DNA of 32,000 bases from NCBI RefSeq assembly GCF_018398935.1, contig NZ_CP074694.1:930001-962000 (forward strand), written 5' to 3'. The DNA is from Telmatocola sphagniphila (lineage in GTDB: Bacteria > Planctomycetota > Planctomycetia > Gemmatales > Gemmataceae). Shown here in pieces: positions 2,750 through 31,920 of the stretch (positions within the stretch are counted from its first letter, which is position 1; each line of letters starts with the position of its first letter). A model generated the notes under the pieces. It had not been told where the DNA came from. It worked only from the letters and a program-made list of their open reading frames with translations, and did no database searches. The position numbers were made by a program, and so were the translations under genes.

Positions 2750-3181
2750 ATGGTGAGAAACGTGAATAACTACATGACGAAACCAGAAAACAAGCCCCAG
2801 GGAGGCCGTCGCAAGGCTTCTCGAGGCTGCCTGATACTATGCCTGGATTCGAAACTGCCCCTGCCTCAGATCAAGGAATCCTTGACCGCGGAAGGCTGGG
2901 AAGTGTTCTGTGCGAAAAAATCTTCCGGCTTACGAGCTCTGTCTTGTGAAATGGATTCCGCCCTGGTGGTGCTCAGCGATCATCTGCCCGGCAACGAGAG
3001 CGGTTTTTTGATGGCCAGCAAACTCCGACTTTCCTGTCCCAGCATGCGGGTGGTGATTGTCGGAAATCGGCCTTCCGCCAAGTCGGAACGTCTGGCCGAC
3101 TTCGTCGGTGCGGAAAGTTATGTCGCCGTGACTGACCTGGAACAGTTTACGAATCGGCTCAAAGAAATCTCTCAGAAGTAA
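2750..3181 (+). CDS. Stand-alone atypical CheY-like receiver domain protein
   Basis: 143-aa ORF. The alternating beta/alpha pattern 'CLILCLDSK ... ALVVLSDHLPGNESGF ... MRVVIVGN ... ESYVAV' resembles a receiver domain. An Asp sits at the acceptor position ('LSDHLPG'), but there is only one acidic residue after beta1 and no obvious conserved Lys. A strong hairpin follows. Confidence 0.45.
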   Translation: MVRNVNNYMTKPENKPQGGRRKASRGCLILCLDSKLPLPQIKESLTAEGWEVFCAKKSSGLRALSCEMDSALVVLSDHLPGNESGFLMASKLRLSCPSMRVVIVGNRPSAKSERLADFVGAESYVAVTDLEQFTNRLKEISQK

Positions 3182-4619: not shown

Positions 4620-6905
4620 TTACGGCCAGTGGACGATCGGAAGCAACTCGGGCACAGAAGGAAGACTTCCTTCGGTGAGAATCATTTTGACACCCTCCGC
4701 CCACTCTCCAGAGTTTGCCCCTTTAATGGGATCGTGAAAACGGGGTTCTCGAAGCAAACGTTCGAATTGAAAACTGGTGGTACGACTTCTCAGCCAGCTA
4801 AATTGCCAGTTTTTCTCCCCTTCCTTCAGCGGAAGCTCGGCCCAGAGCAAATCCCCCACGGAGTATGAGATGGGCGAGCCGTTGCTTTCAAGTGCGAAAA
4901 GATAACTGATACCGTTTTTGTCCCGAACCCCGTCGCCATCTTCCCGGAAGCTCCAGGTCGTGGTTTTGTCAGAACCGCTCGGGCGATGATTGATGGTCAG
5001 TTTCCCGGCCGGTCGGATCCGGAATTCACGCAGGGCATCGGGTATGAACAGCCGGAAGGATTTCGGATTGAGTGAGAAAGAAGCCGTTGCGGCGAAGCGG
5101 CTGAAATGGTCGCAAAGATCTTCGCGGGTGGGCTGCCCGATTCGATGCAGAATATGCAGATATTCTCGCAAATCCCGCTCGCTGTTCGCGTTCAGCCATT
5201 CCGCCAGTTTCGGCCAGTCGAAGGTTTTTTCCGGTCCCGTCGGATTAATCGATTTCAGCTGATCCAGAAGCATTTGCTGGCCGAATTGAATCGCAAGCTG
5301 ATTGGCCCGCACCCAGCGGCTTTGAAACTGCGGTCGGAGATTATCCGGTATGGCGGTCAGCGACCAATTATCCACGCCCGGATAGTCTCGTTTCAACCGC
5401 GTCAGTCGATCCGAGATCATCCTCAGGGGATCGCGAGATTGCAAATCGCTTTCGCTCAAAAGTAATAGAGATTTGTTGTCCGACGGATTGCCGAGGATGC
5501 CCAGGGTTACCGCCAACTCCTGAATGGTACGCAACTTTTCCAGAGCCCGATTCCATTCGCTCCGGAGAACTTCCACTTCCCGGAAGTCCAGGGCCGCCAG
5601 CTTCAAGCGATCACCGGAGGCGAACGGACTGCCGTTGGAATCCACCTGTAATTTACGGAAGTTGCTATCCCATTCCGGTGTCAGCTCCGTCACAAAAAGC
5701 AATTCGTTACCGCGATTTTTCAAGCGGCTGAAAAACTGGCGGGCATCGGTCACGGCGGTGCGGAGCGTAGGAATTTCGGAGAGATATTTTTCGCGAGCTT
5801 GGACGACTTCGGTCTGGGCCCAATCCTTTTCGAAGGTTTTTGGCAGTGAGAGATTTTTGAGAGACTCTTCGAGCCGATTCAAATCGTCGAGGCTGCGCGT
5901 CTTCACCGGTTGGGAGAGTCGAGCCAGGTCATCTCGCAGCTGAATGTAGGCCTCGATTTCCTCGAGATGCTTGGCGATATAATTCTGTTTGTCCCGAGCT
6001 AGTTGTTCGAATTCCGGGTCGTTACGGAGTTCGAGAAGTTCACTCCGTTTTTTCGAAAGCTGGGCTCCGGCCAGGCGTGAAGATGCAGTCTGACCTTCCC
6101 GAGCCTGAAAACCATCGACCTTGGCTTCCAGAGCCAGTTGAACGTCGCTGGTTTGCGTAACCACCAGAACGCCCACTCCCAAAAGCAAAAGGGCCAAAGC
6201 CACGGCAGAGGTGAACACAGCTCGGGCCAGACGGAGATTGGATCGACTGGCCTCCTCGCGATGAAAATAAGCCGTTTCGAAAAGATCCTGAGCCAGCGGG
6301 CGGATACCAAAGGGTTCATCGCGCTGCTTGACTTTATCGGTCACATCGGGCAGATGCGTGGAGGTGGTGTAGATCTCCACGCAGAGGCTGCCGAATCCCC
6401 CGTCGTCGGCGAGAGAATAGTTCTCATCGAATAACTTTCTTACAGTTTCCTTGCGATTCTCGATTCGCTGCATCCATTCCGAATAGCTCATCAAGGTGTC
6501 GGCCAGCAGATCGCATTTCGTCAGCACGATACCGATGGGAAAGCCGCCGACGAGAAACTGATCCTGCCGCCGGCTTTGCAGGGTGCCGAGGAGATCGACT
6601 AAATTCGATAAGCGCTGCTCGAGGTGGGTGACGTCGGAAGAGGCATCCAGAATCAGAATCAACCCGTCGGCCTTCCACTTGGGATCGAGGTTTGTGGAAT
6701 CGGAGTATTCGATCTCGTGGAATTGAACGGGAAGATCGACAGCGATTTTCGAATTGGCACTCGGTGTGAAGAGCAGGCCAGCGCTCCCCGCCGTGGAATT
6801 GTTGTTTTTCGCCTGGATGCTCAGACTGTTCAACAGTGCAGTTTTCCCGGCTCCCGTGGGGCCGAGAACTACGATTTCCAGAGTTTGTCCGACAGATCGA
6901 GTCAT
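4620..6905 (-). CDS. Membrane-anchored P-loop GTPase with a large uncharacterised extracytoplasmic region (helical stalk plus beta-rich C-terminal domain)
   Basis: 761-aa ORF. It has a P-loop 'GPTGAGKT' (aa 15-22) and a hydrophobic strand ending in Asp, 'LILILDAS' (aa 82-89). The G4-type 'TKCD' (aa 129-132) is an NKxD variant of the kind seen in dynamin/IRG-type GTPases. One hydrophobic helix, 'AVFTSAVALALLLLGVGVLVV', spans aa ~229-249. About 330 aa of E/R/L/K-rich, heptad-like sequence follow, then ~170 aa with a beta-like pattern. I recognise no family for the C-terminal ~510 aa. This is the last gene of the Tol/Exb-like cluster, 21 nt after the upstream gene. Confidence 0.75.
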   Translation of the reverse strand: MTRSVGQTLEIVVLGPTGAGKTALLNSLSIQAKNNNSTAGSAGLLFTPSANSKIAVDLPVQFHEIEYSDSTNLDPKWKADGLILILDASSDVTHLEQRLSNLVDLLGTLQSRRQDQFLVGGFPIGIVLTKCDLLADTLMSYSEWMQRIENRKETVRKLFDENYSLADDGGFGSLCVEIYTTSTHLPDVTDKVKQRDEPFGIRPLAQDLFETAYFHREEASRSNLRLARAVFTSAVALALLLLGVGVLVVTQTSDVQLALEAKVDGFQAREGQTASSRLAGAQLSKKRSELLELRNDPEFEQLARDKQNYIAKHLEEIEAYIQLRDDLARLSQPVKTRSLDDLNRLEESLKNLSLPKTFEKDWAQTEVVQAREKYLSEIPTLRTAVTDARQFFSRLKNRGNELLFVTELTPEWDSNFRKLQVDSNGSPFASGDRLKLAALDFREVEVLRSEWNRALEKLRTIQELAVTLGILGNPSDNKSLLLLSESDLQSRDPLRMISDRLTRLKRDYPGVDNWSLTAIPDNLRPQFQSRWVRANQLAIQFGQQMLLDQLKSINPTGPEKTFDWPKLAEWLNANSERDLREYLHILHRIGQPTREDLCDHFSRFAATASFSLNPKSFRLFIPDALREFRIRPAGKLTINHRPSGSDKTTTWSFREDGDGVRDKNGISYLFALESNGSPISYSVGDLLWAELPLKEGEKNWQFSWLRSRTTSFQFERLLREPRFHDPIKGANSGEWAEGVKMILTEGSLPSVPELLPIVHWP

Positions 6906-6926
6906 GAGCCCCGCAAAGTTAGATGC

Positions 6927-7589
6927 TTAACGTTCGGGCATATTGTCGCTGGCGACTGGCGGGAAATTGACGCTCAGGCCATTGTCTTTCGCCCAGCTCT
7001 CGAGCTGCTTCACCAGGTAGCTTTCCCGATAGGCCGTGTCTTTGTATACGAGAATATCAATTCGCTGCAGTTGTTTTTCCGCGTCCCGGCGCCGGGTAAT
7101 AAGCAAATCCTTGAGCTTATCGAAGCTGATGGGTTCCCGGGAATTTTCGATTAGATAGTAGGCCTCGTCGGGGCGAGCGCCGCCCAGCACGATAATCTTG
7201 ACGCGATTCTCGTTTTTCACTTCCTCGGGCACCACGACCGGGAGTTGGGCCGCTTTCTTCTCAGGTTCTTTACTCGGCTCTTCCTTCTCGACGGAATGCT
7301 GGTCGTTACCGGGGCCACCCGGCCGTCCGCCCCCGCTGCCTCCCAGGCCGTAGCCGCCGTCTCCAAAGAGGATGAGAGCGGCCAGGATCGCACAGATAAT
7401 CCCCGAAGCGAATCGGCTCCAGCCGCAGGCCCAATCGGGGAGTTTTTTGCGAAAGTAGAATTTGCCTGCCACTTTGAGAACGCTGGCCATGGCATAATTG
7501 CCCACCAGAAACGCCCCTGCTACGGCAAAGCAATTGATGGCGATTTGTCCCACGCGACTGACGGCATCGGCAAGTAAGAAAAGATTCAT
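6927..7589 (-). CDS. Two-TM membrane protein with Gly-rich/charged linker and ExbD/TolR-like C-terminal domain
   Basis: 220-aa ORF whose ATG overlaps the upstream stop as ATGA (7586-7589). It has two hydrophobic helices (aa ~14-37 and ~60-76). A 'GDGGYGLGGSGGGRPGGPG' tract and an E/K/P-rich linker follow. The C-terminus 'VKIIVLGG..YYLIENSREPISFDKLKDLL..RIDILVYKDTAYRESYLVKQLESWAKDNGLSVNF' follows by eye the ExbD/TolR periplasmic-domain pattern. Confidence 0.65.
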   Translation of the reverse strand: MNLFLLADAVSRVGQIAINCFAVAGAFLVGNYAMASVLKVAGKFYFRKKLPDWACGWSRFASGIICAILAALILFGDGGYGLGGSGGGRPGGPGNDQHSVEKEEPSKEPEKKAAQLPVVVPEEVKNENRVKIIVLGGARPDEAYYLIENSREPISFDKLKDLLITRRRDAEKQLQRIDILVYKDTAYRESYLVKQLESWAKDNGLSVNFPPVASDNMPER

Positions 7590-8128
7590 CGGTTCCCCTG
7601 CTTGGAACGCGGAGTGACCGCTTCATCAAAGCTGTAAGAAACTCCCGCAAACCAACGGCGATAATTTTCAATATGCTGCTGCAAAGGGGCTCCGCGTTTG
7701 GGTAGAAGAATCAGGAACAACGGCTCTCTTCCCCCGGAAGCTCGAATGTGCTGATCGATCATCTTCTCCGCTTCCGACTGATCGGAAATTTCCTGCCGCT
7801 GGCCGTTGGTATAGGTGATCAATTTTCCGGTCGCCAAATCGACTTCCAGCAATTTAATGGCCAATTTTTCACTGATGTCGCCTTGCTCGGCTCGCAACCG
7901 TTGGAGTTCGCGCCGATTGCGTTCCAATTCCTGTCGCAGCGATTCGACATCCTTGGGCAACGCCTCTTCGGTCGGCAGTTCGTTTTCGGGGTTTAGATCG
8001 GGTCCTTCGCCCGGATTGCCGGCCTGGCTGACGAACGGCATCAAAAGGAAAATGCAGAAGAGCAGAATGAGAACGTCGATCAAGGGAATGAAAAATCGAG
8101 TGACGCTCTGTTTTGGTCGTTGAATCAT
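7586..8128 (-). CDS. ExbD/TolR-like biopolymer transport protein with a coiled-coil insertion
   Basis: The ORF track gives 7586..8143. The ATG at 8128 ('MIQRPKQ') forms an ATGA overlap with the upstream stop and is the likelier start. 'RFFIPLIDVLILLFCIFLLMPF' is a single TM helix carrying the conserved Asp of ExbD/TolR/MotB-type stator subunits. It is followed by the charged coiled-coil-like 'VESLRQELERNRRELQRLRAEQ'. The C-terminal domain is 'KLITYTNGQRQEISDQSEAEKMIDQHI...LFLILLPKRGAPLQQHIENYRRWFAGVSYSF'. Confidence 0.7.
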   Translation of the reverse strand: MIQRPKQSVTRFFIPLIDVLILLFCIFLLMPFVSQAGNPGEGPDLNPENELPTEEALPKDVESLRQELERNRRELQRLRAEQGDISEKLAIKLLEVDLATGKLITYTNGQRQEISDQSEAEKMIDQHIRASGGREPLFLILLPKRGAPLQQHIENYRRWFAGVSYSFDEAVTPRSKQGNR

Positions 8129-8649
8129 TTCAGATAACCCCATTTCTCTTCTTCGGGATTACCGGCCATGGAACGAATAATGTCTCGACCGAGGCTGACG
8201 ATCCAGGTGGGCAGGATGTTCAGCAGGGCCATCAGCAAGCCGCTACCGGTGGCCGTGATGGCCGGGGCATATTTTCGAATGATTTCCTGAGGCGTAACGA
8301 CAGGACCATTGATGGAATTGAAGGTCTGCAGGATCGCCGCGACGGTTCCCAGCAATCCCAATAGGGGAAACCATTCCGCCGCCTGAGCGAGATGGTTCAA
8401 CCAGCGATCCGCGGATTCGTCGAAATTGTGTTCTTTCCAGCGCAAGGCCTTCCAGCTCAATGAGATCTGAACCAGAAATAGAATGGCTCCCAGGCTCAGG
8501 ATCAGCCAGTCCATCCCGGAATTTTTAATTCGCTTCAGGTAATCGTGTCGAGCGTCGGGAGGCAGCGCGCAGGCCACCAGGGCCGCGCCGAAGAGCGGGA
8601 GGAGGACGAGGATAGTCGGTAGAAGCTGACGAATGATAAAGGGTCGCAA
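8125..8649 (-). CDS. MotA/TolQ/ExbB-family proton-channel protein (short form)
   Basis: 174-aa ORF. 'FPLLGLLGTVAAILQTF' and 'APAITATGSGLLMALLNILP' match the two conserved C-terminal TM motifs of the MotA/TolQ/ExbB family (LLGLLGTV.G and A..TT..GL...IP). The annotated start is TTG (8649). The next in-frame Met (aa 46) would remove the first hydrophobic segment, so the start is uncertain. Confidence 0.75.
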   Translation of the reverse strand: MRPFIIRQLLPTILVLLPLFGAALVACALPPDARHDYLKRIKNSGMDWLILSLGAILFLVQISLSWKALRWKEHNFDESADRWLNHLAQAAEWFPLLGLLGTVAAILQTFNSINGPVVTPQEIIRKYAPAITATGSGLLMALLNILPTWIVSLGRDIIRSMAGNPEEEKWGYLK

Positions 8650-8703: not shown

Positions 8704-9111
8704 TCAGGACCGATTTTCCAGGAACCAATCGGGCAGGGGCTGAACCTGACCTTCGCGATTTATGCTTGCTAAAGTACTGCTTCCTTCGGCCAGCAGTTCA
8801 GAGTTTCGAAAAACCTCGTATTTGTGTTCGATGCGGACCAGGGTGGAACGAGTGACGGTCGTCCGGATGGTCAGCAGATCGTCGTAGCGGGCGGGCTTAC
8901 GATAGCGGACTTCAACTTTCGTCAAAGCCAGCAGAAAGCCCTTGTCCTCCATCTCTTTATAAGTCAGCCCCTGATCCCTGAGCAGTTCGGTTCGGGCCTG
9001 CTCAAAGAAAACCAGGTAATTCGCATGGTGCAGAAAGCCCATCTGGTCTGTTTCCGCGTATCGGACTCGAATTTGGACCGTTCCGCTGAGAGGTGCTTTC
9101 TCACCACTCAT
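8704..9111 (-). CDS. YbgC/4HBT-family acyl-CoA thioesterase
   Basis: The ORF track gives 8704..9192. The ATG at 9111 ('MSGEKAPLSGTVQIRVRYAETDQMGFLHHANYLVFFEQARTELLR') overlaps the lepB stop as ATGA and gives the normal family length of ~135 aa. The 'V.Y.ETD..G.. HA.Y..FFE.AR.E.L' pattern is the 4-hydroxybenzoyl-CoA thioesterase/YbgC signature. Confidence 0.85.
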   Translation of the reverse strand: MSGEKAPLSGTVQIRVRYAETDQMGFLHHANYLVFFEQARTELLRDQGLTYKEMEDKGFLLALTKVEVRYRKPARYDDLLTIRTTVTRSTLVRIEHKYEVFRNSELLAEGSSTLASINREGQVQPLPDWFLENRS

Positions 9112-10778
9112 TTTATCACTCCAAATCGACTCAGGGGGAAGTAGACCATGACCGCTTTCCCCAATAACAGTCTTTCCGGCACCAGTCCCCACATCCGGCC
9201 GTCGAGGCTGGAAGTGCTGTTATCGCCAAAACAGAGATAGTGACCGGGCTGAACGTAGAAGGTTTGTACGGTGCTGCAGGGATTGTAGCTCGGCGGGAAG
9301 AATTTCTCCTGGATCGCGCCGTAGCCTTGCCGGCCGCCATTGGTTCCGCAGGTGTAGAAGATGTCTCGCCAGATTCGAATCGAATCGCAGGTCACATCCC
9401 CCCGGCTGCCAATTCGAGCCGGTTGCATGCGATCGTTCGGATGGCTCTGATGCACATGAGGAATCGTGTAATCGGCTCCTTTATCGAAGCTCAGAACTTT
9501 GTTATCCACCCATACCGTCAGCCGGCAATCGACATTCGCCAGTCGAATTTCATGCCGACCTTCGCCATTGATACCCGACGAAGTCTTGGAGAGCACAGTC
9601 GATTTATCGTTGTCGTTGGCATCGACTCGAATCAAGGTGCAGTTACCACCGTCGAATACGGCTTGAAAGCGGTAGGGGCCTTTATTGAGCTCCAATATCA
9701 GCTGAGCATCTTTGGATTGAAAATCGGCTTTGCACTCGAGGATCAGGTCGGTGACAACTTCTAGACTAGGACTAGAGCGGGTTTGGTTGTAACCCAGGCT
9801 GTCGTTGATCTCCATCGGTTCGAGGGAAGGCTGATCCTGCCAGCTGGCCAGGTGGTGATAGCGGATCCAGCCCAGATCCGAGCCAGTATGTTTGAAGCCG
9901 GTTTCCCGGGCCTGCCACTCTTTATCGTAACCGGGCTGAGCATGCCAGCGGGTTTTTGCGATACCTTTTAAGCTCGCGGGCTGGTGGTCCATATCGAAGA
10001 CGATAATTCTTTGAGCGAGTATGTCTGTAGGGCTTTTTCGAATGATCTCAAATTTGCCTTGCTCGAAAGCGGAGATTGCATCCGGGTGCGAGGGGTACAT
10101 ATTAGGATAGAGCCAGAGGTTATTGGGATCTTCCGGCAGCTTTTCATCGGGATACTTCAAATCCTTGCAAAGATAGAGGTCGCCATCGAACACGGCGATC
10201 GTTTCCCCGGGCAAACCCACCAGTCGCTTGATGTAGTTGGTGGGCACCCGTTCGCGCACCGAGAAGGGTTCCACGGGCCATTTGAAAACCGGCACGTCGA
10301 ATCGTTTGGGAGGATTGATGTAATAGGCCGGTTTTAAAACCAGTACCCGGTCGCCGCTGCGCACGCCGGAGAAATCGACCGCATCCTCTTTGAGCACTTT
10401 ACCCGTAGAGTCGGTTTTCGCGATGAATTTGTAACCGCAGTTCGAACAGATGTAGCTGGTGATAATCGAACGCTGGCCGAAATCGTTCGAAGAAGAGTTT
10501 AACGGGCTCTTGTAGCCGCACTCCCGGCAGGTGACCATTTCATGATCACCATACAAGGTCTCCGCCATGGATCCGGTGGGGATTACGAACGCTTCCGCGA
10601 CAAACCTTTGCAGCATCAGGACCAGGACAAGCACGAACACAACGGTTTCGAACATTTCCCGGACGAGATTCTTGGGTTCGACTTCATGGTTTTTTTTCTT
10701 GGCAAAGAAGCTTCGCAGGATCGTGGAAAGCCAGTCGGACTTTGTGGTATCGGGCGGATTGGTAGGGGAACTCGGCAT
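9108..10778 (-). CDS. lepB: Signal peptidase I (S26 family), long form with Cys4 zinc-ribbon and large beta-rich insertion
   Basis: 556-aa ORF. It has an N-terminal TM 'VVFVLVLVLMLQRFV' and catalytic Ser box 'IPTGSMAETL'. It also has the Lys box 'YIKRLVGLPGETI' and the C-terminal box 'GDNSTSSLDGRMWGLVPERLLLGKAV'. 'CRECGYKSP...CSNCGYKF' lies between boxes B and D, and ~300 extra residues lie between the Lys box and the final box. Confidence 0.85.
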   Translation of the reverse strand: MPSSPTNPPDTTKSDWLSTILRSFFAKKKNHEVEPKNLVREMFETVVFVLVLVLMLQRFVAEAFVIPTGSMAETLYGDHEMVTCRECGYKSPLNSSSNDFGQRSIITSYICSNCGYKFIAKTDSTGKVLKEDAVDFSGVRSGDRVLVLKPAYYINPPKRFDVPVFKWPVEPFSVRERVPTNYIKRLVGLPGETIAVFDGDLYLCKDLKYPDEKLPEDPNNLWLYPNMYPSHPDAISAFEQGKFEIIRKSPTDILAQRIIVFDMDHQPASLKGIAKTRWHAQPGYDKEWQARETGFKHTGSDLGWIRYHHLASWQDQPSLEPMEINDSLGYNQTRSSPSLEVVTDLILECKADFQSKDAQLILELNKGPYRFQAVFDGGNCTLIRVDANDNDKSTVLSKTSSGINGEGRHEIRLANVDCRLTVWVDNKVLSFDKGADYTIPHVHQSHPNDRMQPARIGSRGDVTCDSIRIWRDIFYTCGTNGGRQGYGAIQEKFFPPSYNPCSTVQTFYVQPGHYLCFGDNSTSSLDGRMWGLVPERLLLGKAVMVYFPLSRFGVIK

Positions 10779-20658: not shown

Positions 20659-21489
20659 CTAGAGAGCCTGAATTACGATACCATATCGGTCCGCTAATGC
20701 TGTTGTAGCTTCCACATCGAGGATGATAGTCTTTCCCGCTTCAATCGCCAACACTCGACCGCCCGCCTTGTGAATAGTTTCGATAGTCTTTTCACCCACA
20801 GTTGGCACGTCGAACCGCATATCCTGCTGCGGTTTCGCCACTTTTACCACGGTAAAGCCCCGTTTACTGAGCGTTCCCGCCCGTAAAATGGCCTCATCCG
20901 TACCTTCAATGGCTTCCACCGCTATCACGGCTGCATCATGAACCATCACGCTCTGGCCGATGTCTAATCGACCCATCTCTTTTGCAATCTCCCAACCGAA
21001 GCGGATATCGGCTTCTTCGCTCGCGGTCGGTTTACGTTTAGTATGAATACCCGGTTTTACAAGCAGTTCGGGACAGGTGTCGAGGGCCGACTCGCAATGG
21101 AGGCCTTCTTTTTCGTATTCGCCAATGATTCCCGAAAGTATCGAATCATCGCGATTGTCCCTTTTGCGTCCGAAAAACCACCAACGAATCATGCGTAGAT
21201 CTGGCATAAGACGTATGAACCAAAATGGGGAATACAGAATGGTTTTATCGATCTTCCCAGCCATGGTGTAACGTTTCACCCCGGCTTTGCGAAAACTTCG
21301 AATCGGCTTATTGAGAGCTCCCAGGCGGACCCAGATAAAATCTTGCACATACGGCAGAAAGTCTTCTTTACGTGCCAGGCCACTGATGCCGAGACAAATG
21401 ACCGGACGCTGGATGGCGTGCGCTTTCTGCGCAAACAGGATCGGAAATCTTCCGCGTCCGGCTATCAGTCCGATGGGTTCCGCATTCAT
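20659..21489 (-). CDS. lpxI: UDP-2,3-diacylglucosamine diphosphatase LpxI (DUF1009)
   Basis: 276-aa ORF. It has the N-terminal 'IGLIAGRGRFPILFAQKA', then 'DIGQSVMVHDAAVIAVEAIEGTDEAILRAG'. The C-terminal 'RFDVPTVGEKTIETIHKAGGRVLAIEAGKTIILD' fits LpxI. Its ATG overlaps the lpxD stop as ATGA (21486-21489). Confidence 0.8.
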   Translation of the reverse strand: MNAEPIGLIAGRGRFPILFAQKAHAIQRPVICLGISGLARKEDFLPYVQDFIWVRLGALNKPIRSFRKAGVKRYTMAGKIDKTILYSPFWFIRLMPDLRMIRWWFFGRKRDNRDDSILSGIIGEYEKEGLHCESALDTCPELLVKPGIHTKRKPTASEEADIRFGWEIAKEMGRLDIGQSVMVHDAAVIAVEAIEGTDEAILRAGTLSKRGFTVVKVAKPQQDMRFDVPTVGEKTIETIHKAGGRVLAIEAGKTIILDVEATTALADRYGIVIQAL

Positions 21490-22511
21490 TCGTTATCCGC
21501 CAAACCGATCTTTTTTTTGATATTTCGTAGATCCCGGCGAATCTCGGGAAGTTTTTCCAGCGACATCATGATCCGCATTTGCTCTTTATCGGGAGTCGCC
21601 GGTGAACCGAGCATTCGAGCACCCGCGGGGACATCCTTATGAATACCGGCCTTGGCACCCAGTATCGCCCGATCTCCAATATGGCAATGGTCGGCTATAC
21701 CCACCTGACCCGCCATCACCACGTAATCCCCGGTCGAGGAAGAGCCGGCAATACCGACTTGGCTGACAATCAGATTATGACGTCCCAGCGAACAATTGTG
21801 GCCAATCATCACCAGATTATCAATCTTGGTGCCTCTCCCGATGATCGTGCGACCGAAAGTCCCCCGATCAATAGTCGTTCCGGCCCCAATTTCCACATCT
21901 TCCTGGATTTCCACGCTTCCCTGCTGGGGAACTTTGATGTGTTGGCCTTTAACAGTTCGATAGCCGAAGCCGTCGCAGCCGAGGACTACGTGAGCGTGAA
22001 TGCGGACTCGCTCCCCGATCTTGCAGCCATCGTACAGGATCACTTGGGGAAAGATCGTCACATCCGCAGCAATTTCACAATCCGCGCCGATGATCGACCC
22101 AGGATAAATTTTGCAACCTGGCCCGATCTTCACACCGGGCCCGATGCAGACGAAAGCGCCAATAGCCACATCCGGAGCGATTTCCGCCGTGGGATCTATT
22201 TGTGCGGTGGGATGTATCCCCAGCAAAGTTCGATCGGGCTTCGGATTTAATTTTTGAACGATCTTGGCGAAGGCCAGAAGTGGATCCTCGATTCGGATCA
22301 AGGGCTTGCCTACACCCGTTAAGTGAGGAGCAGCCACTGCGGCGACCGCAGGAGATTCTTTAAAATCGTTGAGGTATTTTTCGTTTTCCAGAAAGACGAG
22401 ATCGCCGGGCTGCGCTTCAGACAACGGCCGCGCCCCTGAAATCAGGCAATCGCCGTTCCCCTCCACGATACCATCAATCCATGAAGCTATTTCGCGTACC
22501 GTGACGGCCAC
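21486..22511 (-). CDS. lpxD: UDP-3-O-acylglucosamine N-acyltransferase
   Basis: 341-aa ORF. The N-terminal uridine-binding region is 'VREIASWIDGIVEGNGDCLISGARPLSEAQPGDLVFLENEKY'. It is followed by a long run of hexapeptide (left-handed beta-helix) repeats. Confidence 0.92.
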   Translation of the reverse strand: MAVTVREIASWIDGIVEGNGDCLISGARPLSEAQPGDLVFLENEKYLNDFKESPAVAAVAAPHLTGVGKPLIRIEDPLLAFAKIVQKLNPKPDRTLLGIHPTAQIDPTAEIAPDVAIGAFVCIGPGVKIGPGCKIYPGSIIGADCEIAADVTIFPQVILYDGCKIGERVRIHAHVVLGCDGFGYRTVKGQHIKVPQQGSVEIQEDVEIGAGTTIDRGTFGRTIIGRGTKIDNLVMIGHNCSLGRHNLIVSQVGIAGSSSTGDYVVMAGQVGIADHCHIGDRAILGAKAGIHKDVPAGARMLGSPATPDKEQMRIMMSLEKLPEIRRDLRNIKKKIGLADNE

Positions 22512-25838: not shown

Positions 25839-27650
25839 TCAGTCACCTTGATTCATCAAAGGCTTAACCACGTCGGCTACAGTTTTGATGGTTTGCGAGG
25901 GGACGAACAGATCGAATCCGCCATGTTCCGGCTTCAGAGTCACACTGAGCCCGAAGAAGGACTTCGGCGCATTCTTGTCGATTTTCAGCTCAGGAATCTG
26001 AAGGGCATCCGCACCCGGAATCATCTTGGGAATCTCTTTAACATATCCGTAGATGGAGTTCAAAAGGGAGTTGGATTCGATCAGAGTCAGGAAAGTAACG
26101 TCTTTCGGTAAGCTGTTTCGAGTCAGCTTATAAGCTGCTGAGTCGCCCACCGTGTCGGATTTCTTGGCGCTGCCGGCCTTCAGGCTCAGATAGGATTCGA
26201 CCTGCTTCTTGGCGGACTCCCAATCCTTGGCGGTTACCTGAAGCACGGATTTGTCGTCGCGGGCCAGCCACATCGACATGCCATCCCCGCCCATCAGTTT
26301 GTTTAAAACGGCCTTCATCGATTCTTTGGCTTCTTCGGGAATATTCTGATCTGCAATTGCTTTATCGAAGTCGAACTTCATCTTCACTGAGGTAAACGAG
26401 AGAGCTCCGACCTTTTCGGCATTCTCCTTGATGGCGGGTTTGCTCTTCAGAGGAGTGCTTCCGAAGGATGAAGTTTCAGTCAGACAGTTATACATCTGCA
26501 TCTGGGCCGCAAAAGCCGCTTCACCATTTTCGTAACTATTCATTGTAATCCCACTGATCGGAGCCAGATCGGCAAACGAAACCGTATCAATCTGACCGGC
26601 CGCCTGCAGGGCTTCTGCCGCCTTCTCCAGTTTGGCTTTCACATCTTCGTTAGAATCATCAGCGGTCGACATTTGTATAAGTTTGCTGAGCAATTTGCTC
26701 TTGGCCGACAATTGCATCGCACTGTAAACGCCTTTGCCATCAGGAAGGGCACCCAGCTTCGCCATTTCGGTAGGTTTGAGGTCTTTCAGGAACGCGCTGG
26801 TATCGGTATCCTTGGTGAATTGCGACTGAATTTTCAGCGAAACACCTTCGCCTTTCAGCGACAACCCCACCAGGATCGCTTTACTATCTTCGAGGATTTG
26901 GAAGACGCCGAGAATCATATCCTTGGCCAATTCCAATTGTTTCTTGTCCAAACCACCGGCCGCTCCACCTTGAGCGAGAGCGAGATCGACGAGCGATTTC
27001 GCGCCCTTGATCTGAGCTCCGTAGAGGTTGTTGATCTCAATCATGTTGACAAAAATACAGAAGTCCGAGTTGGTGAAGGAGGCTTCAACCTCTGCGCTGA
27101 CTTTACCCTTTAGCGAGGTGAATTTGCCGGAGTATTCCTTGGCATATTCCTTCTGGGAACTCAATACGACAGTTTCGCCCTTATTGAGAAGATAAAGCGG
27201 CTTCTCTTCGATGGTCAGGACATCCAAGCCGTCTTCTTTCTTCAAGGTTTTGAGTTCGTCGGCCTTGAAGGTGGTTTTGAAGTCATCGTATTTGAGGACC
27301 GGCACGATCAGTGCCACGTTGGGATTTTCGTTACCGCTCAGCTCGGCCAGATTCGGCAGTAGCACGTAGATCGGTTTGGCTTTGTCCAGACCTTTGAGAT
27401 CGCGGCCGTCGGTGGCTTGTTTCAAGCCTTCCTTGAGCTGCTTCATCAGCTTTTCCGATTTATCGGGGAAAGCGGTTTTCAAGAAGGCTCCCACCTTCTG
27501 CTCGACTGCATCGAGGCCGGGAACTTTCACCACGATGGGCGTTTTTTCCGGGAACAAACCGAATGGGGTTTGAGCGTTGGCGGAAGAGTTCCAGGCCGCG
27601 AAACCGGCGAAGGCAACGAAGAGGCTGAGCATCAAGCGGAAGCGTCTCAT
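25839..27650 (-). CDS. Secreted protein of unknown function (Lys/Glu/Ala-rich, 603 aa)
   Basis: Signal peptide 'MRRFRLMLSLFVAFAGFAAWNSSANA|Q'. It is a long uninterrupted ORF with no confidently recognised domain. Confidence 0.6.
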   Translation of the reverse strand: MRRFRLMLSLFVAFAGFAAWNSSANAQTPFGLFPEKTPIVVKVPGLDAVEQKVGAFLKTAFPDKSEKLMKQLKEGLKQATDGRDLKGLDKAKPIYVLLPNLAELSGNENPNVALIVPVLKYDDFKTTFKADELKTLKKEDGLDVLTIEEKPLYLLNKGETVVLSSQKEYAKEYSGKFTSLKGKVSAEVEASFTNSDFCIFVNMIEINNLYGAQIKGAKSLVDLALAQGGAAGGLDKKQLELAKDMILGVFQILEDSKAILVGLSLKGEGVSLKIQSQFTKDTDTSAFLKDLKPTEMAKLGALPDGKGVYSAMQLSAKSKLLSKLIQMSTADDSNEDVKAKLEKAAEALQAAGQIDTVSFADLAPISGITMNSYENGEAAFAAQMQMYNCLTETSSFGSTPLKSKPAIKENAEKVGALSFTSVKMKFDFDKAIADQNIPEEAKESMKAVLNKLMGGDGMSMWLARDDKSVLQVTAKDWESAKKQVESYLSLKAGSAKKSDTVGDSAAYKLTRNSLPKDVTFLTLIESNSLLNSIYGYVKEIPKMIPGADALQIPELKIDKNAPKSFFGLSVTLKPEHGGFDLFVPSQTIKTVADVVKPLMNQGD

Positions 27651-29727: not shown

Positions 29728-30750
29728 CTATTTTAGAGGCCAGGCGAAACGGACCAGTTCTCCGTGCGGTATCTTGGCATCCATGGATGCGAAGCCGACC
29801 CACAGCGATTTGTTTTGGGGCTCCTCTGCCACCGTGTTGGCGTTTCCCTGAGGCAGTTCAGATCCGTACAAAAACTTGGCGGATGCCAGTTCCCAGATGC
29901 TCAGGTAGCCGTGACTTTTTTTTCCCGGACCGACCGCCACCAGATATTTGTTGTCCGGAGTCAACTTCAGAGCATAGATCGCGTTCGGATGAGATTGGTT
30001 TTTGAATTCGGGATGCGCGAGACGATGAGCCACCTTCGCTTCTGCAAAATTCCAGATATTGATGGATCGATCGGCTGAACCGCTCAGGAGCCATTTGCCA
30101 TCGGCGGACAACTCCGAGCAGAGCACCTGATCCCAGTGTCCCAAGGGATTGTTTTTTTCGTCGAAGGGCCGAAATTCGCGAATGAGTTTTCCATCCCCGG
30201 CATCGAAAAGCTTCAGACTCTTGTCGAGTGAGGAACTCAAGAGTTGCCGGCCATCACTCGTCCAGCGAATCGAATAGATCGGGCTGGGCTTAGGCTGGTT
30301 GTGTGCGTTAATGGTTCGTAAGGTCTGACCCTTTTCCACATTCCAAATTCGCAGTAGGCCATCGTGACAGCAAGTGGCCAACTGCTTACCTTCCGGATGC
30401 CAGTTCGAAGCAAAAACTGTATTCGGATGGCCGAACGATTTGATAGCCGTTTGTTCGCTGCGCGTGGCCTTGACCGGATTCAGTTCCCAAATCTTCGCGG
30501 AGTTATCCATGCTGGTGGTGGCGAAGAGACTGCCATCGGGAGAAAGACTGAGGCTCAGCAATCCCGCTTGGCGGCTGCCCGGCGTGCCAAAGGTCCGCAG
30601 CTTTTCCCCGGTCTCGCGATTCCACTGCACGACAGTTCTGTCAAAACTCGAGGAAAACAGCCATTTTTCCCGAGGATGAAGCGCGAGCCCCGTCACATCC
30701 TCAGCCTGGCCAGCAAGAGACTTTTTCACTTCGAGAGGGGGAAATTCCAT
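29728..30750 (-). CDS. WD40 (beta-propeller) repeat protein
   Basis: 340-aa ORF with repeated units ending in WD-like dipeptides ('TVVQWN', 'SAKIWE', 'LLRIWN', 'SLKLFD', 'SINIWN', 'YLSIWE'). No signal peptide. Confidence 0.85.
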   Translation of the reverse strand: MEFPPLEVKKSLAGQAEDVTGLALHPREKWLFSSSFDRTVVQWNRETGEKLRTFGTPGSRQAGLLSLSLSPDGSLFATTSMDNSAKIWELNPVKATRSEQTAIKSFGHPNTVFASNWHPEGKQLATCCHDGLLRIWNVEKGQTLRTINAHNQPKPSPIYSIRWTSDGRQLLSSSLDKSLKLFDAGDGKLIREFRPFDEKNNPLGHWDQVLCSELSADGKWLLSGSADRSINIWNFAEAKVAHRLAHPEFKNQSHPNAIYALKLTPDNKYLVAVGPGKKSHGYLSIWELASAKFLYGSELPQGNANTVAEEPQNKSLWVGFASMDAKIPHGELVRFAWPLK

Positions 30751-30753
30751 GGC

Positions 30754-31920
30754 TCAATTATACTCCAGGGCCAGGATGGTGAAATCGTCCGGATGCCGGG
30801 AAACCTCCAGCAGATCGCGAGCCACCTGGTCGACGAACTGCTGCAAAGGTAATGCGCGGTGTTTCCGAGTCGATTCAAGCAGGCGGTCATTCGAACTACC
30901 ACTTCCACCTGCGTTCGGTGGATTGATACCGTCGGTCGTAATCACCAGTTTGTCCCCGGGCTTCAATGTTTTTTCATGCTCCGGATAGTCGGATTCAAAA
31001 ATTCCCAGCAGCGAACCGGCGGAGTACCAGTACTCTACCTCACCTTCGGCGGGAACCAGCAAGGGATGAGGGTGGGCTGCTCGGGAGAAACGAAGCGTAC
31101 CGTTTTTGGTATCGAGGATGCCATAAATCATCGTCACGAACGGCGGTTCGGGCATCGCCAGGGCGACCAGATCGTGATTCAGCCGATTCAAAACTTCGGC
31201 GGGCGGCACCAGACGGTAACCTTCTTTGCCAATCTCCTTCAGGTAGAGTGCCCGCTTGACGAAGATACTCAACAAACTGCTGGCCGGTAGTCCCCGGCCC
31301 ATGGCGTCGGCCACGTAGAAGCCGATATGGTTTTCATCGAGACGGAGTACGTCGTAAAAATCGCCGCCGATTCGACTGCGGGGCCGATAGCAGACTGCGA
31401 AACGCGTGCCATCGACTTCCGGCAAGGTTTTGGGCAGGAAGCCGCGGTGAATGCGGCGAGTCAGTTCGAGATCGTTGTCGATCTGCTGATAAGCCTGCTG
31501 CAAGCGAAGGTTAATCTGATTCGATTCGTTGGCGCGAAATAGCAGGCGATCGTGGATATGCTGGGCCCGCAGGAGAGCTTTGACTTGAGCGAGGAGAAAA
31601 TCGATTGGGACATTTCGGGATAGGCAAATATCAGCGCCCGATTCCAACGCGAGAGAATTCAGCTGACTCGACTCCTGCAACCAGATAATGGGAACATATT
31701 GATCCCCAAGTTCCAGCCTCCAGCGCCGGCACAGAGCCAAAGCCTGAGGAGAGTTCCCTTCGCTCGGAAAAAGAACGATGATTTGGGATTGCGTGACATT
31801 CGAAATATTCGACCCCGACAGTGGCTGCGCGATGACCGGAAAATTCTGGGACTGAAATAATTTCAGAATCTCCGGGGGGATTGGGTCGCCTACCAGCAAA
31901 ATTCTCGGGATTGCATTCAT
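30754..31920 (-). CDS. PP2C/SpoIIE-family (RsbU-like) serine phosphatase with N-terminal pseudo-receiver domain
   Basis: 388-aa ORF. The C-terminal half has 'RIHRGFLPKTLPEVDG', 'IGGDFYDV', 'GFYVADAMGRGLPASSL' and 'LVITTDGI', all SpoIIE/PP2C motifs. The N-terminal ~120 aa follow a CheY-like pattern ('ILLVGDP ... IIVLFPSEG ... PIIWLQES ... ADICLSRNVPIDFLLAQVKALL') but have Phe-Pro-Ser where the phospho-acceptor Asp should be. Confidence 0.8.
   Translation of the reverse strand: MNAIPRILLVGDPIPPEILKLFQSQNFPVIAQPLSGSNISNVTQSQIIVLFPSEGNSPQALALCRRWRLELGDQYVPIIWLQESSQLNSLALESGADICLSRNVPIDFLLAQVKALLRAQHIHDRLLFRANESNQINLRLQQAYQQIDNDLELTRRIHRGFLPKTLPEVDGTRFAVCYRPRSRIGGDFYDVLRLDENHIGFYVADAMGRGLPASSLLSIFVKRALYLKEIGKEGYRLVPPAEVLNRLNHDLVALAMPEPPFVTMIYGILDTKNGTLRFSRAAHPHPLLVPAEGEVEYWYSAGSLLGIFESDYPEHEKTLKPGDKLVITTDGINPPNAGGSGSSNDRLLESTRKHRALPLQQFVDQVARDLLEVSRHPDDFTILALEYN

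Follow-up and report, generated by a model that had tools for sequence, protein, structure and literature searches.

We analysed a 32,000-nucleotide stretch of the genome of Telmatocola sphagniphila, a Gemmatales planctomycete (RefSeq assembly GCF_018398935.1, contig NZ_CP074694.1, positions 930,001 to 962,000 of the forward strand). The whole stretch is referred to as the window, and coordinates are window coordinates unless another locus is named. Four open reading frames (ORFs), designated g1 to g4, are packed head to tail on the minus strand between positions 8649 and 4620. They encode a predicted MotA/TolQ/ExbB-type proton-channel subunit (g1), a predicted ExbD/TolR/MotB-type subunit (g2), a protein with a transmembrane (TM) hairpin (g3) and a putative GTPase with one TM helix (g4). 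The frames of g1 and g2 overlap at an ATGA junction (GAAATGATT), those of g2 and g3 overlap in the same way (CCGATGAAT), and a gap of 21 nt separates g3 from g4. An earlier reading of this DNA made from the letters alone (hereafter the sequence-only reading) had singled out these four ORFs, and their coordinates and all three junctions are confirmed here. KIH39_04025 corresponds to g3 and KIH39_04020 to g4, each with 100 % identity.

Proton-driven 5:2 motors (MotAB, ExbBD, TolQR, GldLM, AglRQS, ZorAB) are coming to be seen as a general source of power for envelope work. We know of no described 5:2 motor that is encoded with a membrane-embedded GTPase. What is new at this locus is a 5:2-motor module with new partners, together with a new family of bitopic GTPases. 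The cluster had been supposed to be undescribed and a full-text search of the literature found no earlier description of it.

The g1 gene (8125 to 8649, minus strand) starts at a TTG codon with a GAGGGG Shine-Dalgarno sequence and encodes 174 amino acids. The product matches the Pfam family MotA_ExbB (PF01618) with 39.2 bits against a cut-off of 22.9 (E = 6.7e-10), and orthologs of g1 carry the PF01618 label in independent gene calls. Among the NCBIfam models TolQ is the best match (E = 4e-6) and ExbB2 the second best. When g1 is aligned with 15 orthologs and E. coli TolQ, residues P95, G98, L99, G101, T102, V103, A133, T134 and G137 are invariant, with T102 and T134 in register with the TolQ pore threonines T145 and T178. 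The hydropathy profile contains four hydrophobic helices. According to the alignment g1 does not have the large cytoplasmic domain of TolQ (174 versus 230 amino acids) and has an extra hydrophobic helix instead. The MotA/TolQ/ExbB assignment made by the sequence-only reading is therefore upheld by the Pfam score and the invariant threonines, and g1 is a predicted minimal channel subunit of this type in which the pore threonines are kept.

The second gene, g2 (7586 to 8128, minus strand, 180 amino acids), is predicted to comprise a TM helix at residues 12 to 30, a coiled-coil linker whose length varies across the family and a C-terminal alpha/beta domain of about 80 amino acids. Orthologs start with ‘MIxMPRRSVTRF’, which supports the start at 8128 over the longer ORF from 8143. 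The TM helix is near-invariant (RSVTRFFIPLIDVLTLLFCIFLL) and holds Asp18, the putative proton-binding residue (codon at 8075 to 8077, minus strand), which is invariant in 22 of 22 orthologs. We compared this helix with a profile of 11 ExbD/TolR members, built from plasmid-borne ExbD/TolR, and found a match with the aspartates in register (hhalign, P = 4.6e-5). No canonical ExbD gene was found in about 660 kb of locus DNA. Single-protein comparisons with hhalign gave the same picture for E. coli TolR (P = 3.4e-4, Asp18 on TolR Asp23) and for ExbD (P = 4.7e-4, Asp18 on ExbD Asp25). These results bear out the earlier assignment of g2 as an ExbD/TolR-like subunit with a TM aspartate.

The similarity does not extend along the protein. 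Beyond the TM helix g2 has no sequence match to ExbD or TolR, and the Pfam ExbD model (PF02472) does not reach its cut-off on the window g2 (E = 0.5, 11 bits). Across the g2 family ExbD is the commonest match below threshold: 13 of 22 members have it, always confined to the TM helix (best E = 7.7e-4). MotB_plug matches 7 of the 22, likewise below threshold. The Pfam ExbD label is absent from the best 120 listed of at least 1969 clusters of g2 homologs, and the family profile has no significant match in PDB, where the MotB TM helix appears at E = 0.14. The head of g2 aligns weakly with that of g3 (P = 0.007). The ExbD/TolR-type assignment accordingly draws on the transpore helix and the gene context, and by its sequence the head is not recognisably ExbD.

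The g3 gene (6927 to 7589, minus strand) encodes a membrane protein of 220 amino acids with a predicted TM hairpin (residues 3 to 75), a disordered, Gly-rich and charged linker (76 to 128) and a small head (129 to 208). An AlphaFold2 model calculated from a 65-sequence alignment of database homologs has a pLDDT of 77, with values above 90 for both the hairpin and the head, and gives the head a beta-beta-alpha-beta-alpha-beta topology. No match to g3 was found in Pfam, NCBIfam or PADLOC, and a Foldseek search of the head against about 350,000 PDB chains returned nothing at E ≤ 0.001. TolR (5by4; E = 0.14, prob 0.85) ranks fifth among the weak matches, and eighth is 8p9r, the solved periplasmic domain of ExbD in complex with TonB (E = 0.19, prob 0.89, TM score 0.65 by target). 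In profile-profile comparison with hhalign the whole g3 head aligns in register with the whole ExbD/TolR periplasmic domain at P = 0.014. The g3 family has no hhalign match to single E. coli TolR, ExbD or TolA sequences, nor does a larger g3 profile (A5) match the ExbD profile. On model and profile together an ExbD-like head is likely, with some room for doubt. Of the earlier description of g3 the two TM helices stand, while the ExbD-like C-terminus is only suggestive (E of 0.14 to 0.19, P = 0.014).

The first TM helix of g3 is a near-invariant glycine zipper. Its residues A22, G25, G26, A27, G30, W31 and F32 show conservation of 92 % or more, a level that points to a specific partner within the membrane. 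A conserved TM aspartate is not present in g3: position 35 is Ala in the window, and Asp at this place is confined to one subclade (86 % of the A5 sample). A subfamily of g3 goes with short forms of g4 (described below); in it the cytoplasmic end of TM1 carries an Asp-Pro pair (‘WFVCDPLTR’) that is 86 to 89 % conserved in the A5 alignment, at a place where the window g3 has Ala-Ser. Since g3 lacks a conserved TM aspartate and has a TM hairpin, a 5:1:1 stator of the AglQ/AglS kind, as had been envisaged, is unlikely. In the top 50 Foldseek matches of g3 and of g4 neither TolA nor TonB is matched as such, and hhalign of the g3 family against E. coli TolA found nothing; by these searches neither protein has a C-terminal domain homologous to that of TonB or to domain III of TolA. 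Judged by these features g3 is neither a second stator subunit nor a homolog of TolA or TonB.

The last gene, g4 (4620 to 6905, minus strand), encodes 761 amino acids with one TM helix and about 510 periplasmic residues. The AlphaFold2 model has a mean pLDDT of 91.7 (92 sequences) and divides the protein into four parts, all coordinates being on the minus strand. Residues 1 to 200 (6306 to 6905) form a predicted cytoplasmic G domain of the TRAFAC class with the motifs G1 (GPTGAGKT) and G4 (TKCD). The TM helix, located by hydropathy and by the model at residues 230 to 248 (6162 to 6218), lies within a long helix that spans residues 201 to 249. It is followed by an all-helical periplasmic domain (residues 255 to 606; 5088 to 6143) that is modelled with pLDDT above 90 and for which neither Foldseek nor a sequence profile found a match in PDB. 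A beta-sandwich (residues 609 to 747; 4665 to 5081) is modelled near the C-terminus. A Foldseek search with the N-terminal domain returned only small GTPases, namely RagC, SR-beta, Arl, HflX-like proteins and G-alpha (E = 1e-4 to 1e-3, prob 1.0), and a viral structure library gave the same small-GTPase picture. According to the model the N-terminal domain has a TRAFAC GTPase fold, and the P-loop GTPase with a single TM helix and about 510 extracytoplasmic residues that the sequence-only reading described is recovered.

An exhaustive HMMER search for the g4 family found 612 clusters (50 % identity) at E ≤ 1e-3, of which 289 reach E ≤ 1e-30. Members are typically 810 to 850 amino acids long. The family consensus reads ‘GxPxAGK[ST]’ for G1, a G2-like Thr, ‘DCDG’ for G3 and ‘LTKCDLL’ for G4; the G3 motif is present in at least 90 % of the family. 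Residues G15, G20, K21 and D132 are invariant in 92 sequences, and W704 and P752 are invariant as well. Among the G domains of ten relatives, all ten match DO-GTPase2 just below its cut-off (best 26.6 versus 27 bits) and four match MMR_HSR1 above the cut-off, while the window g4 reaches 14 bits with the DO-GTPase Pfam models. The ectodomain has no match in Pfam, NCBIfam or PADLOC, and the family profile finds P-loop matches only in PDB. The profile and structure searches place neither g3 nor g4 in a characterised family, which counts in favour of the sequence-only reading. We conclude that g4 defines a new family of bitopic GTPases of about 600 clusters at 50 % identity, for which there is no Pfam model.

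We collected related loci by a pattern scan across GTDB species (one genome each), which yielded 41 loci with g4 relatives (L003 to L043), labelled nearly all as Gemmataceae, Gemmatales or Planctomycetota. Exact look-up of P0002 and P0003, two homologs of g4, added L001 and L002. Among these 43 loci, g1 and/or g2 lie directly upstream of the g4 relative in 29; ten have at least 5 kb of upstream DNA yet no g1 or g2, and four are too short for judgement. The order g1-g2-g3-g4 is accordingly found in 29 of the 39 loci that are informative, all of them from other genomes, with g4 identities of 25 to 52 %. Two further loci, both found via g2 homologs (L045 and L046), bring the number of linked loci to 31. 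The adjacency of g1 and g2 is kept in all syntenic loci and a positional g3 ortholog is present in every one of them: where tblastn missed it, the space between g2 and g4 is taken up by an ORF of fitting length and architecture. The genes downstream of g4 are not conserved among the loci.

The strong co-occurrence of the four genes in related genomes, which the sequence-only reading had put forward for checking, is borne out by this gene-neighbourhood comparison. From the sequences compared, the arrangement is conserved far beyond chance and its pattern is one of vertical inheritance in a housekeeping setting; the module is chromosomal and appears to occur mainly or only in Gemmatales planctomycetes. 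One planctomycete-type g1-g2-g3-g4 module (L028, CAZFGM010000072.1) lies in a metagenome-assembled genome labelled ‘uncultured Alcaligenaceae’, where mis-binning is likely.

Short forms of g4, of about 450 to 550 amino acids, occur in one subclade (L024, L026, L027, L029, L035 to L038 and L041). They end at about residue 467 of the window protein and do not have the distal helices and the beta-sandwich; the helical part proximal to about that residue is shared by the whole family, short forms included. The short forms are still linked to g1, g2 and g3. We rejected the explanation that they are split genes since no downstream ORF matches the missing part.

The cluster proved to be packed as first described; it is however not free-standing, as it follows lepB-like and ybgC-like genes. 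The co-directional block consists of six head-to-tail genes running from 10778 to 4620, with a convergent purC gene downstream and a divergent gene upstream. Its first gene (9108 to 10778, minus strand) encodes a signal-peptidase-I-like protein of the S26 family with 556 amino acids (Peptidase_S26, E = 1.2e-28; TIGR02227, 89 bits versus a cut-off of 47). The second (8704 to 9111, minus strand) encodes a 4HBT acyl-CoA thioesterase of the YbgC/FadM family (4HBT_2, E = 1.5e-16) with 39 % identity to E. coli YbgC (E = 2e-18). The thioesterase passes the cut-off of NCBIfam TIGR00051 (91.7 versus 68.7 bits) and scores 92.5 bits with TIGR02799 (thio_ybgC), under the cut-off of 141. Its probable start is Met28 of the listed ORF: this in-frame ATG overlaps the stop codon of the S26 peptidase gene and gives a third ATGA junction in the block. 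The end of the thioesterase gene is 54 nt from the start of g1. In most loci that reach far enough upstream both genes are syntenic, and L045, on a contig of 9.3 Mb, has the complete order lepA, S26 peptidase, 4HBT thioesterase, a 59-amino-acid ORF, MotA_ExbB, g2, g3 and g4. A scan of the block for promoters and terminators gave signals at or below shuffle expectation.

Several other features of this region were recorded. The 59-amino-acid ORF between the thioesterase and MotA_ExbB genes is conserved in three loci, L045 (8212 to 8391), L046 (2921 to 3100) and L047 (8054 to 8233); the window has only the 54-nt gap. The S26 signal peptidase is unusually long (556 amino acids in the window, up to about 730 elsewhere), has weak zinc-ribbon-like matches around residues 72 to 119 and is duplicated in tandem in several loci (L015, L019, L038 and L041 were noted). 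Around the block the window carries housekeeping genes including purC, LpxD, LpxI, SHMT and TruD. LpxD and LpxI, of lipid A synthesis, are adjacent (20659 to 22511, minus strand), which fits a lipopolysaccharide-making host with an outer membrane. A WD40 beta-propeller protein (340 amino acids) is encoded 3 nt downstream of a SpoIIE/PP2C-type phosphatase (388 amino acids) at 29728 to 31920 (minus strand), and the two may be a signalling pair. Two ORFs, one of 603 amino acids (25839 to 27650, minus strand) and one of 143 (2750 to 3181, plus strand), have no Pfam match at E ≤ 1e-5.

The YbgC-type thioesterase directly upstream and TolQ as the best NCBIfam match of g1 link the module to Tol. Because the cluster follows lepB-like and ybgC-like genes, g1 and g2 look like a Tol remnant and not like something unrelated to Tol. 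The three ATGA overlaps and the short gaps argue for a tightly coupled module. We hypothesize that the locus encodes a lineage-specific, TolQ/TolR-type, proton-driven envelope module with g3 and g4 as new partners, a reading of the whole mechanism that we favour tentatively and give a little less than an even chance. In such a module g1 and g2 would form a 5:2 complex in which proton flow through Asp18 moves g2 relative to g1. The near-invariant glycine zipper of TM1 would dock g3 on the motor, and its flexible linker would present the small, probably ExbD-like head in the periplasm, where the g4 ectodomain or the related g2 head may be its pairing partner. The helical domain and distal beta-sandwich of g4 would serve as a long periplasmic output or scaffold. 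The nucleotide state of its G domain might set assembly or activity, probably via nucleotide-dependent dimerisation as in other small TRAFAC GTPases. The likely job would be a Tol-like coupling of the inner membrane to both wall and outer membrane in bacteria that do not have TolA, TolB or Pal at the locus. We see in the module a good candidate for a new machine of the cell envelope, and infer its function, like the physical coupling of its parts, from sequence and context.

A number of observations weigh against this reading. The first concerns the GTPase. In the window g4 and its nearest relative P0002, about 50 residues that include the G2-like Thr and G3 are lost: the G3 position reads ‘FHEIEY’ in the window g4 and ‘FTEVN’ in P0002. 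The deletion site lies within window positions 6650 to 6800 (g4 residues ~36 to 85), and the pLDDT of the model is 60 to 75 across residues 31 to 80. For Telmatocola these features make GTP binding plausible and a normal hydrolysis cycle doubtful; the GTPase of this lineage may bind nucleotide without cycling. Of the sequence-only reading the GTPase fold is borne out by the model, and the GTP switch that it proposed is least secure in Telmatocola itself, where the G2/G3 region is lost. In addition, the periplasmic domains of g3 and g2 are not significantly ExbD-like by any single test, the TM columns of g3 and g4 contain no SHLS/His motor-binding motif, and no window ORF of at least 200 amino acids has a TolB, Pal or CpoB domain. 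Finally, the TM helix of g4 is conserved in hydrophobicity only. As the TM1 of g3 is nearly invariant and the TM helix of g4 poorly conserved, g3 appears likelier than g4 to be the intramembrane partner of the motor.

The remaining points concern the linkage of g4. Copies of g4 at unrelated sites are found in five loci (L009, L014, L016, L025 and L031), and L047 has g1, g2 and g3 with no g4 nearby. In a neighbour-joining tree the unlinked copies form a subclade nested within the linked clade. Secondary relocation or recent duplication would seem to account for them, and we rejected the alternative that they are ancient paralogs because of this nesting. Fixed stoichiometry through co-translation, which had been thought likely, is accordingly not obligatory. 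The relocated g4 genes have a different conserved context. Those of L009 and L025 are followed by a DUF3467 protein and a protein of about 850 amino acids with Big_2, PSCyt2 and PSD1 domains; the copy in L016 lies downstream of a Peptidase_C25 gene.

One explanation for these exceptions is that g1 and g2, perhaps with g3, form a Tol/Exb-like motor and that g4 is an independent bitopic GTPase, a frequent neighbour that is not mechanically coupled to it. In that case g4 could be, for example, a periplasmic sensor or scaffold with its output through the cytoplasmic G domain. The nested copies at unrelated sites, the L047 locus and the unconserved TM helix of g4 would all be explained in this way, as would the g3/g4 junction, which is a gap and not an overlap and is wider in L021, L034 and L040. 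However, the linkage is kept in 31 loci across deep divergence (25 to 30 % identity), and short and long forms of g4 both stay linked. No alternative conserved partner was seen either. The new neighbours of relocated g4 (DUF3467, PSCyt2/PSD1) are generic planctomycete genes. We consider an uncoupled g4 to be on the unlikely side, while giving it real weight.

The envelope module proposed above can also be carried further. It is conceivable that g1 to g4 are one physical machine, in which a TolQR-type proton motor and a periplasm-spanning g4 with its own GTPase switch replace TolA-TolB-Pal in coordinating outer membrane and wall during the FtsZ-independent budding of Gemmatales. A single complex across the envelope would then integrate nucleotide state with proton flow. 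In this full form we regard the proposal as unlikely.

Alternatively, the module may be a Ton-like energiser of outer-membrane transport or macromolecule uptake, with g3 as a TonB analogue pulling on a transporter in the outer membrane and g4 as a regulator or periplasmic scaffold. The layout of g3 (TM segment, disordered Gly/Pro/charged linker and globular head), ExbB2 as the second-best NCBIfam match of g1 and the presence of 8p9r among the best structural matches of the g3 head are all consistent with this idea. It would nevertheless have to do without an SHLS/His motif in g3 or g4 and without similarity of either to the C-terminal domains of TonB or TolA. The window has no gene for a TonB-dependent receptor, and linkage to ybgC is typical of Tol and not of Ton. 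A Ton-like role therefore seems improbable to us.

Zorya uses MotA/MotB-like proteins, and a defence function of that type would make the module an anti-phage system in which a MotAB-like sensor of a perturbed envelope is coupled to an NTPase effector, with g4 as a switch like the DO-GTPases of conflict systems. The g4 relatives that match DO-GTPase2 just under the cut-off, and a weak PADLOC match of mad8 to the g4 P-loop (E = 7e-5), point in this direction. However, g1, g2 and g3 have no PADLOC match, the ZorA and ZorB models included, and PADLOC gave no defence signal around the module. Synteny with lepA, lepB and ybgC is stable across an order-level clade, there are no variable effector genes and no GAP1 partner, and no viral relatives of the module proteins were found. 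We disfavour this explanation strongly. Least credible of all is a motor of the GldL/GldM type for type IX secretion or gliding, as the weak GldM_1st match of g2 (E = 1e-3, 19 bits versus a cut-off of 25) falls on the coiled coil and recurs in only 2 of 22 g2 members, while g1 matches MotA_ExbB and keeps the TolQ threonines, g2 carries the ExbD/TolR-type Asp and no other gld or por genes are nearby.

If g4 is truly coupled to the motor, the module would be the first case in which one assembly across the envelope unites a nucleotide switch with a proton motor. It would then also provide an approachable candidate for the coordination of inner membrane, wall and outer membrane in FtsZ-less budding planctomycetes. 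Even without that coupling, Gemmatales keep a ybgC-tolQ-tolR remnant with non-canonical partners, and g4 represents a new family of bitopic GTPases. The finding will surprise specialists in envelopes and motors, and it bears on how planctomycetes without FtsZ manage their envelope. The attachments of proton-driven 5:2 motors are being actively catalogued (PMC12204202).

For comparison, we set the module against systems with related parts. With the DO-GTPase and MMR_HSR1 families of TRAFAC GTPases g4 shares the small GTPase fold. To our knowledge, an architecture of G domain, TM helix and ectodomain has not been described for either family. The defining features of DO-GTPase systems are the PF19993/PF19975 domains, a GAP1 partner and a Walker-B Glu (PMC7159879). 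The g4 proteins differ in having no GAP1 partner, zinc ribbon or effector genes, and the Walker B consensus of the family is DCDG and not the DO-GTPase glutamate.

The Myxococcus AglR-AglQ-AglS motor was the analogy offered by the sequence-only reading: it likewise has one TolQ-like protein with two small partners, and a small GTPase is involved. In contrast to g3, however, AglQ and AglS both carry the TM Asp. MglA is a soluble, Ras-like polarity switch that is encoded elsewhere, whereas g4 is predicted to be membrane-embedded with an ectodomain of 510 residues. Glt-like genes are absent at the module.

The likeness to ExbB-ExbD-TonB lies in the predicted proton-driven pair of a 5:2-type channel and an Asp helix, in the g3 head, which resembles the ExbD periplasmic domain at low significance, and in the Gly/Pro/charged g3 linker, which is similar to the TonB spacer. 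The module differs in having an extra GTPase protein and no TonB C-terminal domain, SHLS motif or nearby TonB-dependent receptor. To the three-part plan of TolA and TonB both g3 and g4 bear a likeness in outline without being the same: in the models g3 has a TM hairpin, then 50 disordered residues as a spacer and a head of 80 residues, and g4 a TM helix with a structured ectodomain of 510 residues.

The Tol-Pal system of Proteobacteria is encoded in the order ybgC-tolQ-tolR-tolA-tolB-pal-cpoB. As at the Telmatocola locus, a gene for a YbgC-family thioesterase is followed there by a TolQ-like and then a TolR-like gene, and the setting is that of chromosomal housekeeping genes. It is characteristic of Tol-Pal operons that tolQ-tolR immediately follow ybgC (PMC12204202). 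Both the pore threonines, in g1, and the TM Asp, in g2, are conserved, and the third gene, g3, appears to encode, like TolA, a membrane anchor, a flexible linker and a small globular head. On the other hand, g1 does not have the cytoplasmic domain of TolQ, the head of g2 is unrecognisable and preceded by a coiled-coil insert, and g3 has a TM hairpin without an SHLS/His motif or TolA domain III. The position of TolB is taken by the membrane GTPase g4, and there is no Pal or CpoB at the locus.

In bacteria of the PVC group, vWA-type force transducers that are not TolA adjoin tolQ and two heterologous tolR-like genes, and planctomycetes are among the phyla listed for them (PMC12204202). They set a precedent for the reading that we favour. 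The arrangement is similar to ours in that a TolQ-like gene and two genes for TolR/ExbD-like proteins precede that of a novel membrane-anchored periplasmic protein. In contrast to these transducers, g4 has no vWA domain and no His/SHLS motif, and carries a cytoplasmic GTPase domain and an ectodomain modelled as a helical domain and a beta-sandwich; the module has no gene for a TPR protein, and g3 has no Asp helix. Taken together, Tol-Pal and ExbBD-TonB are the closest known systems, and the vWA force transducers of PVC bacteria are the closest in concept.

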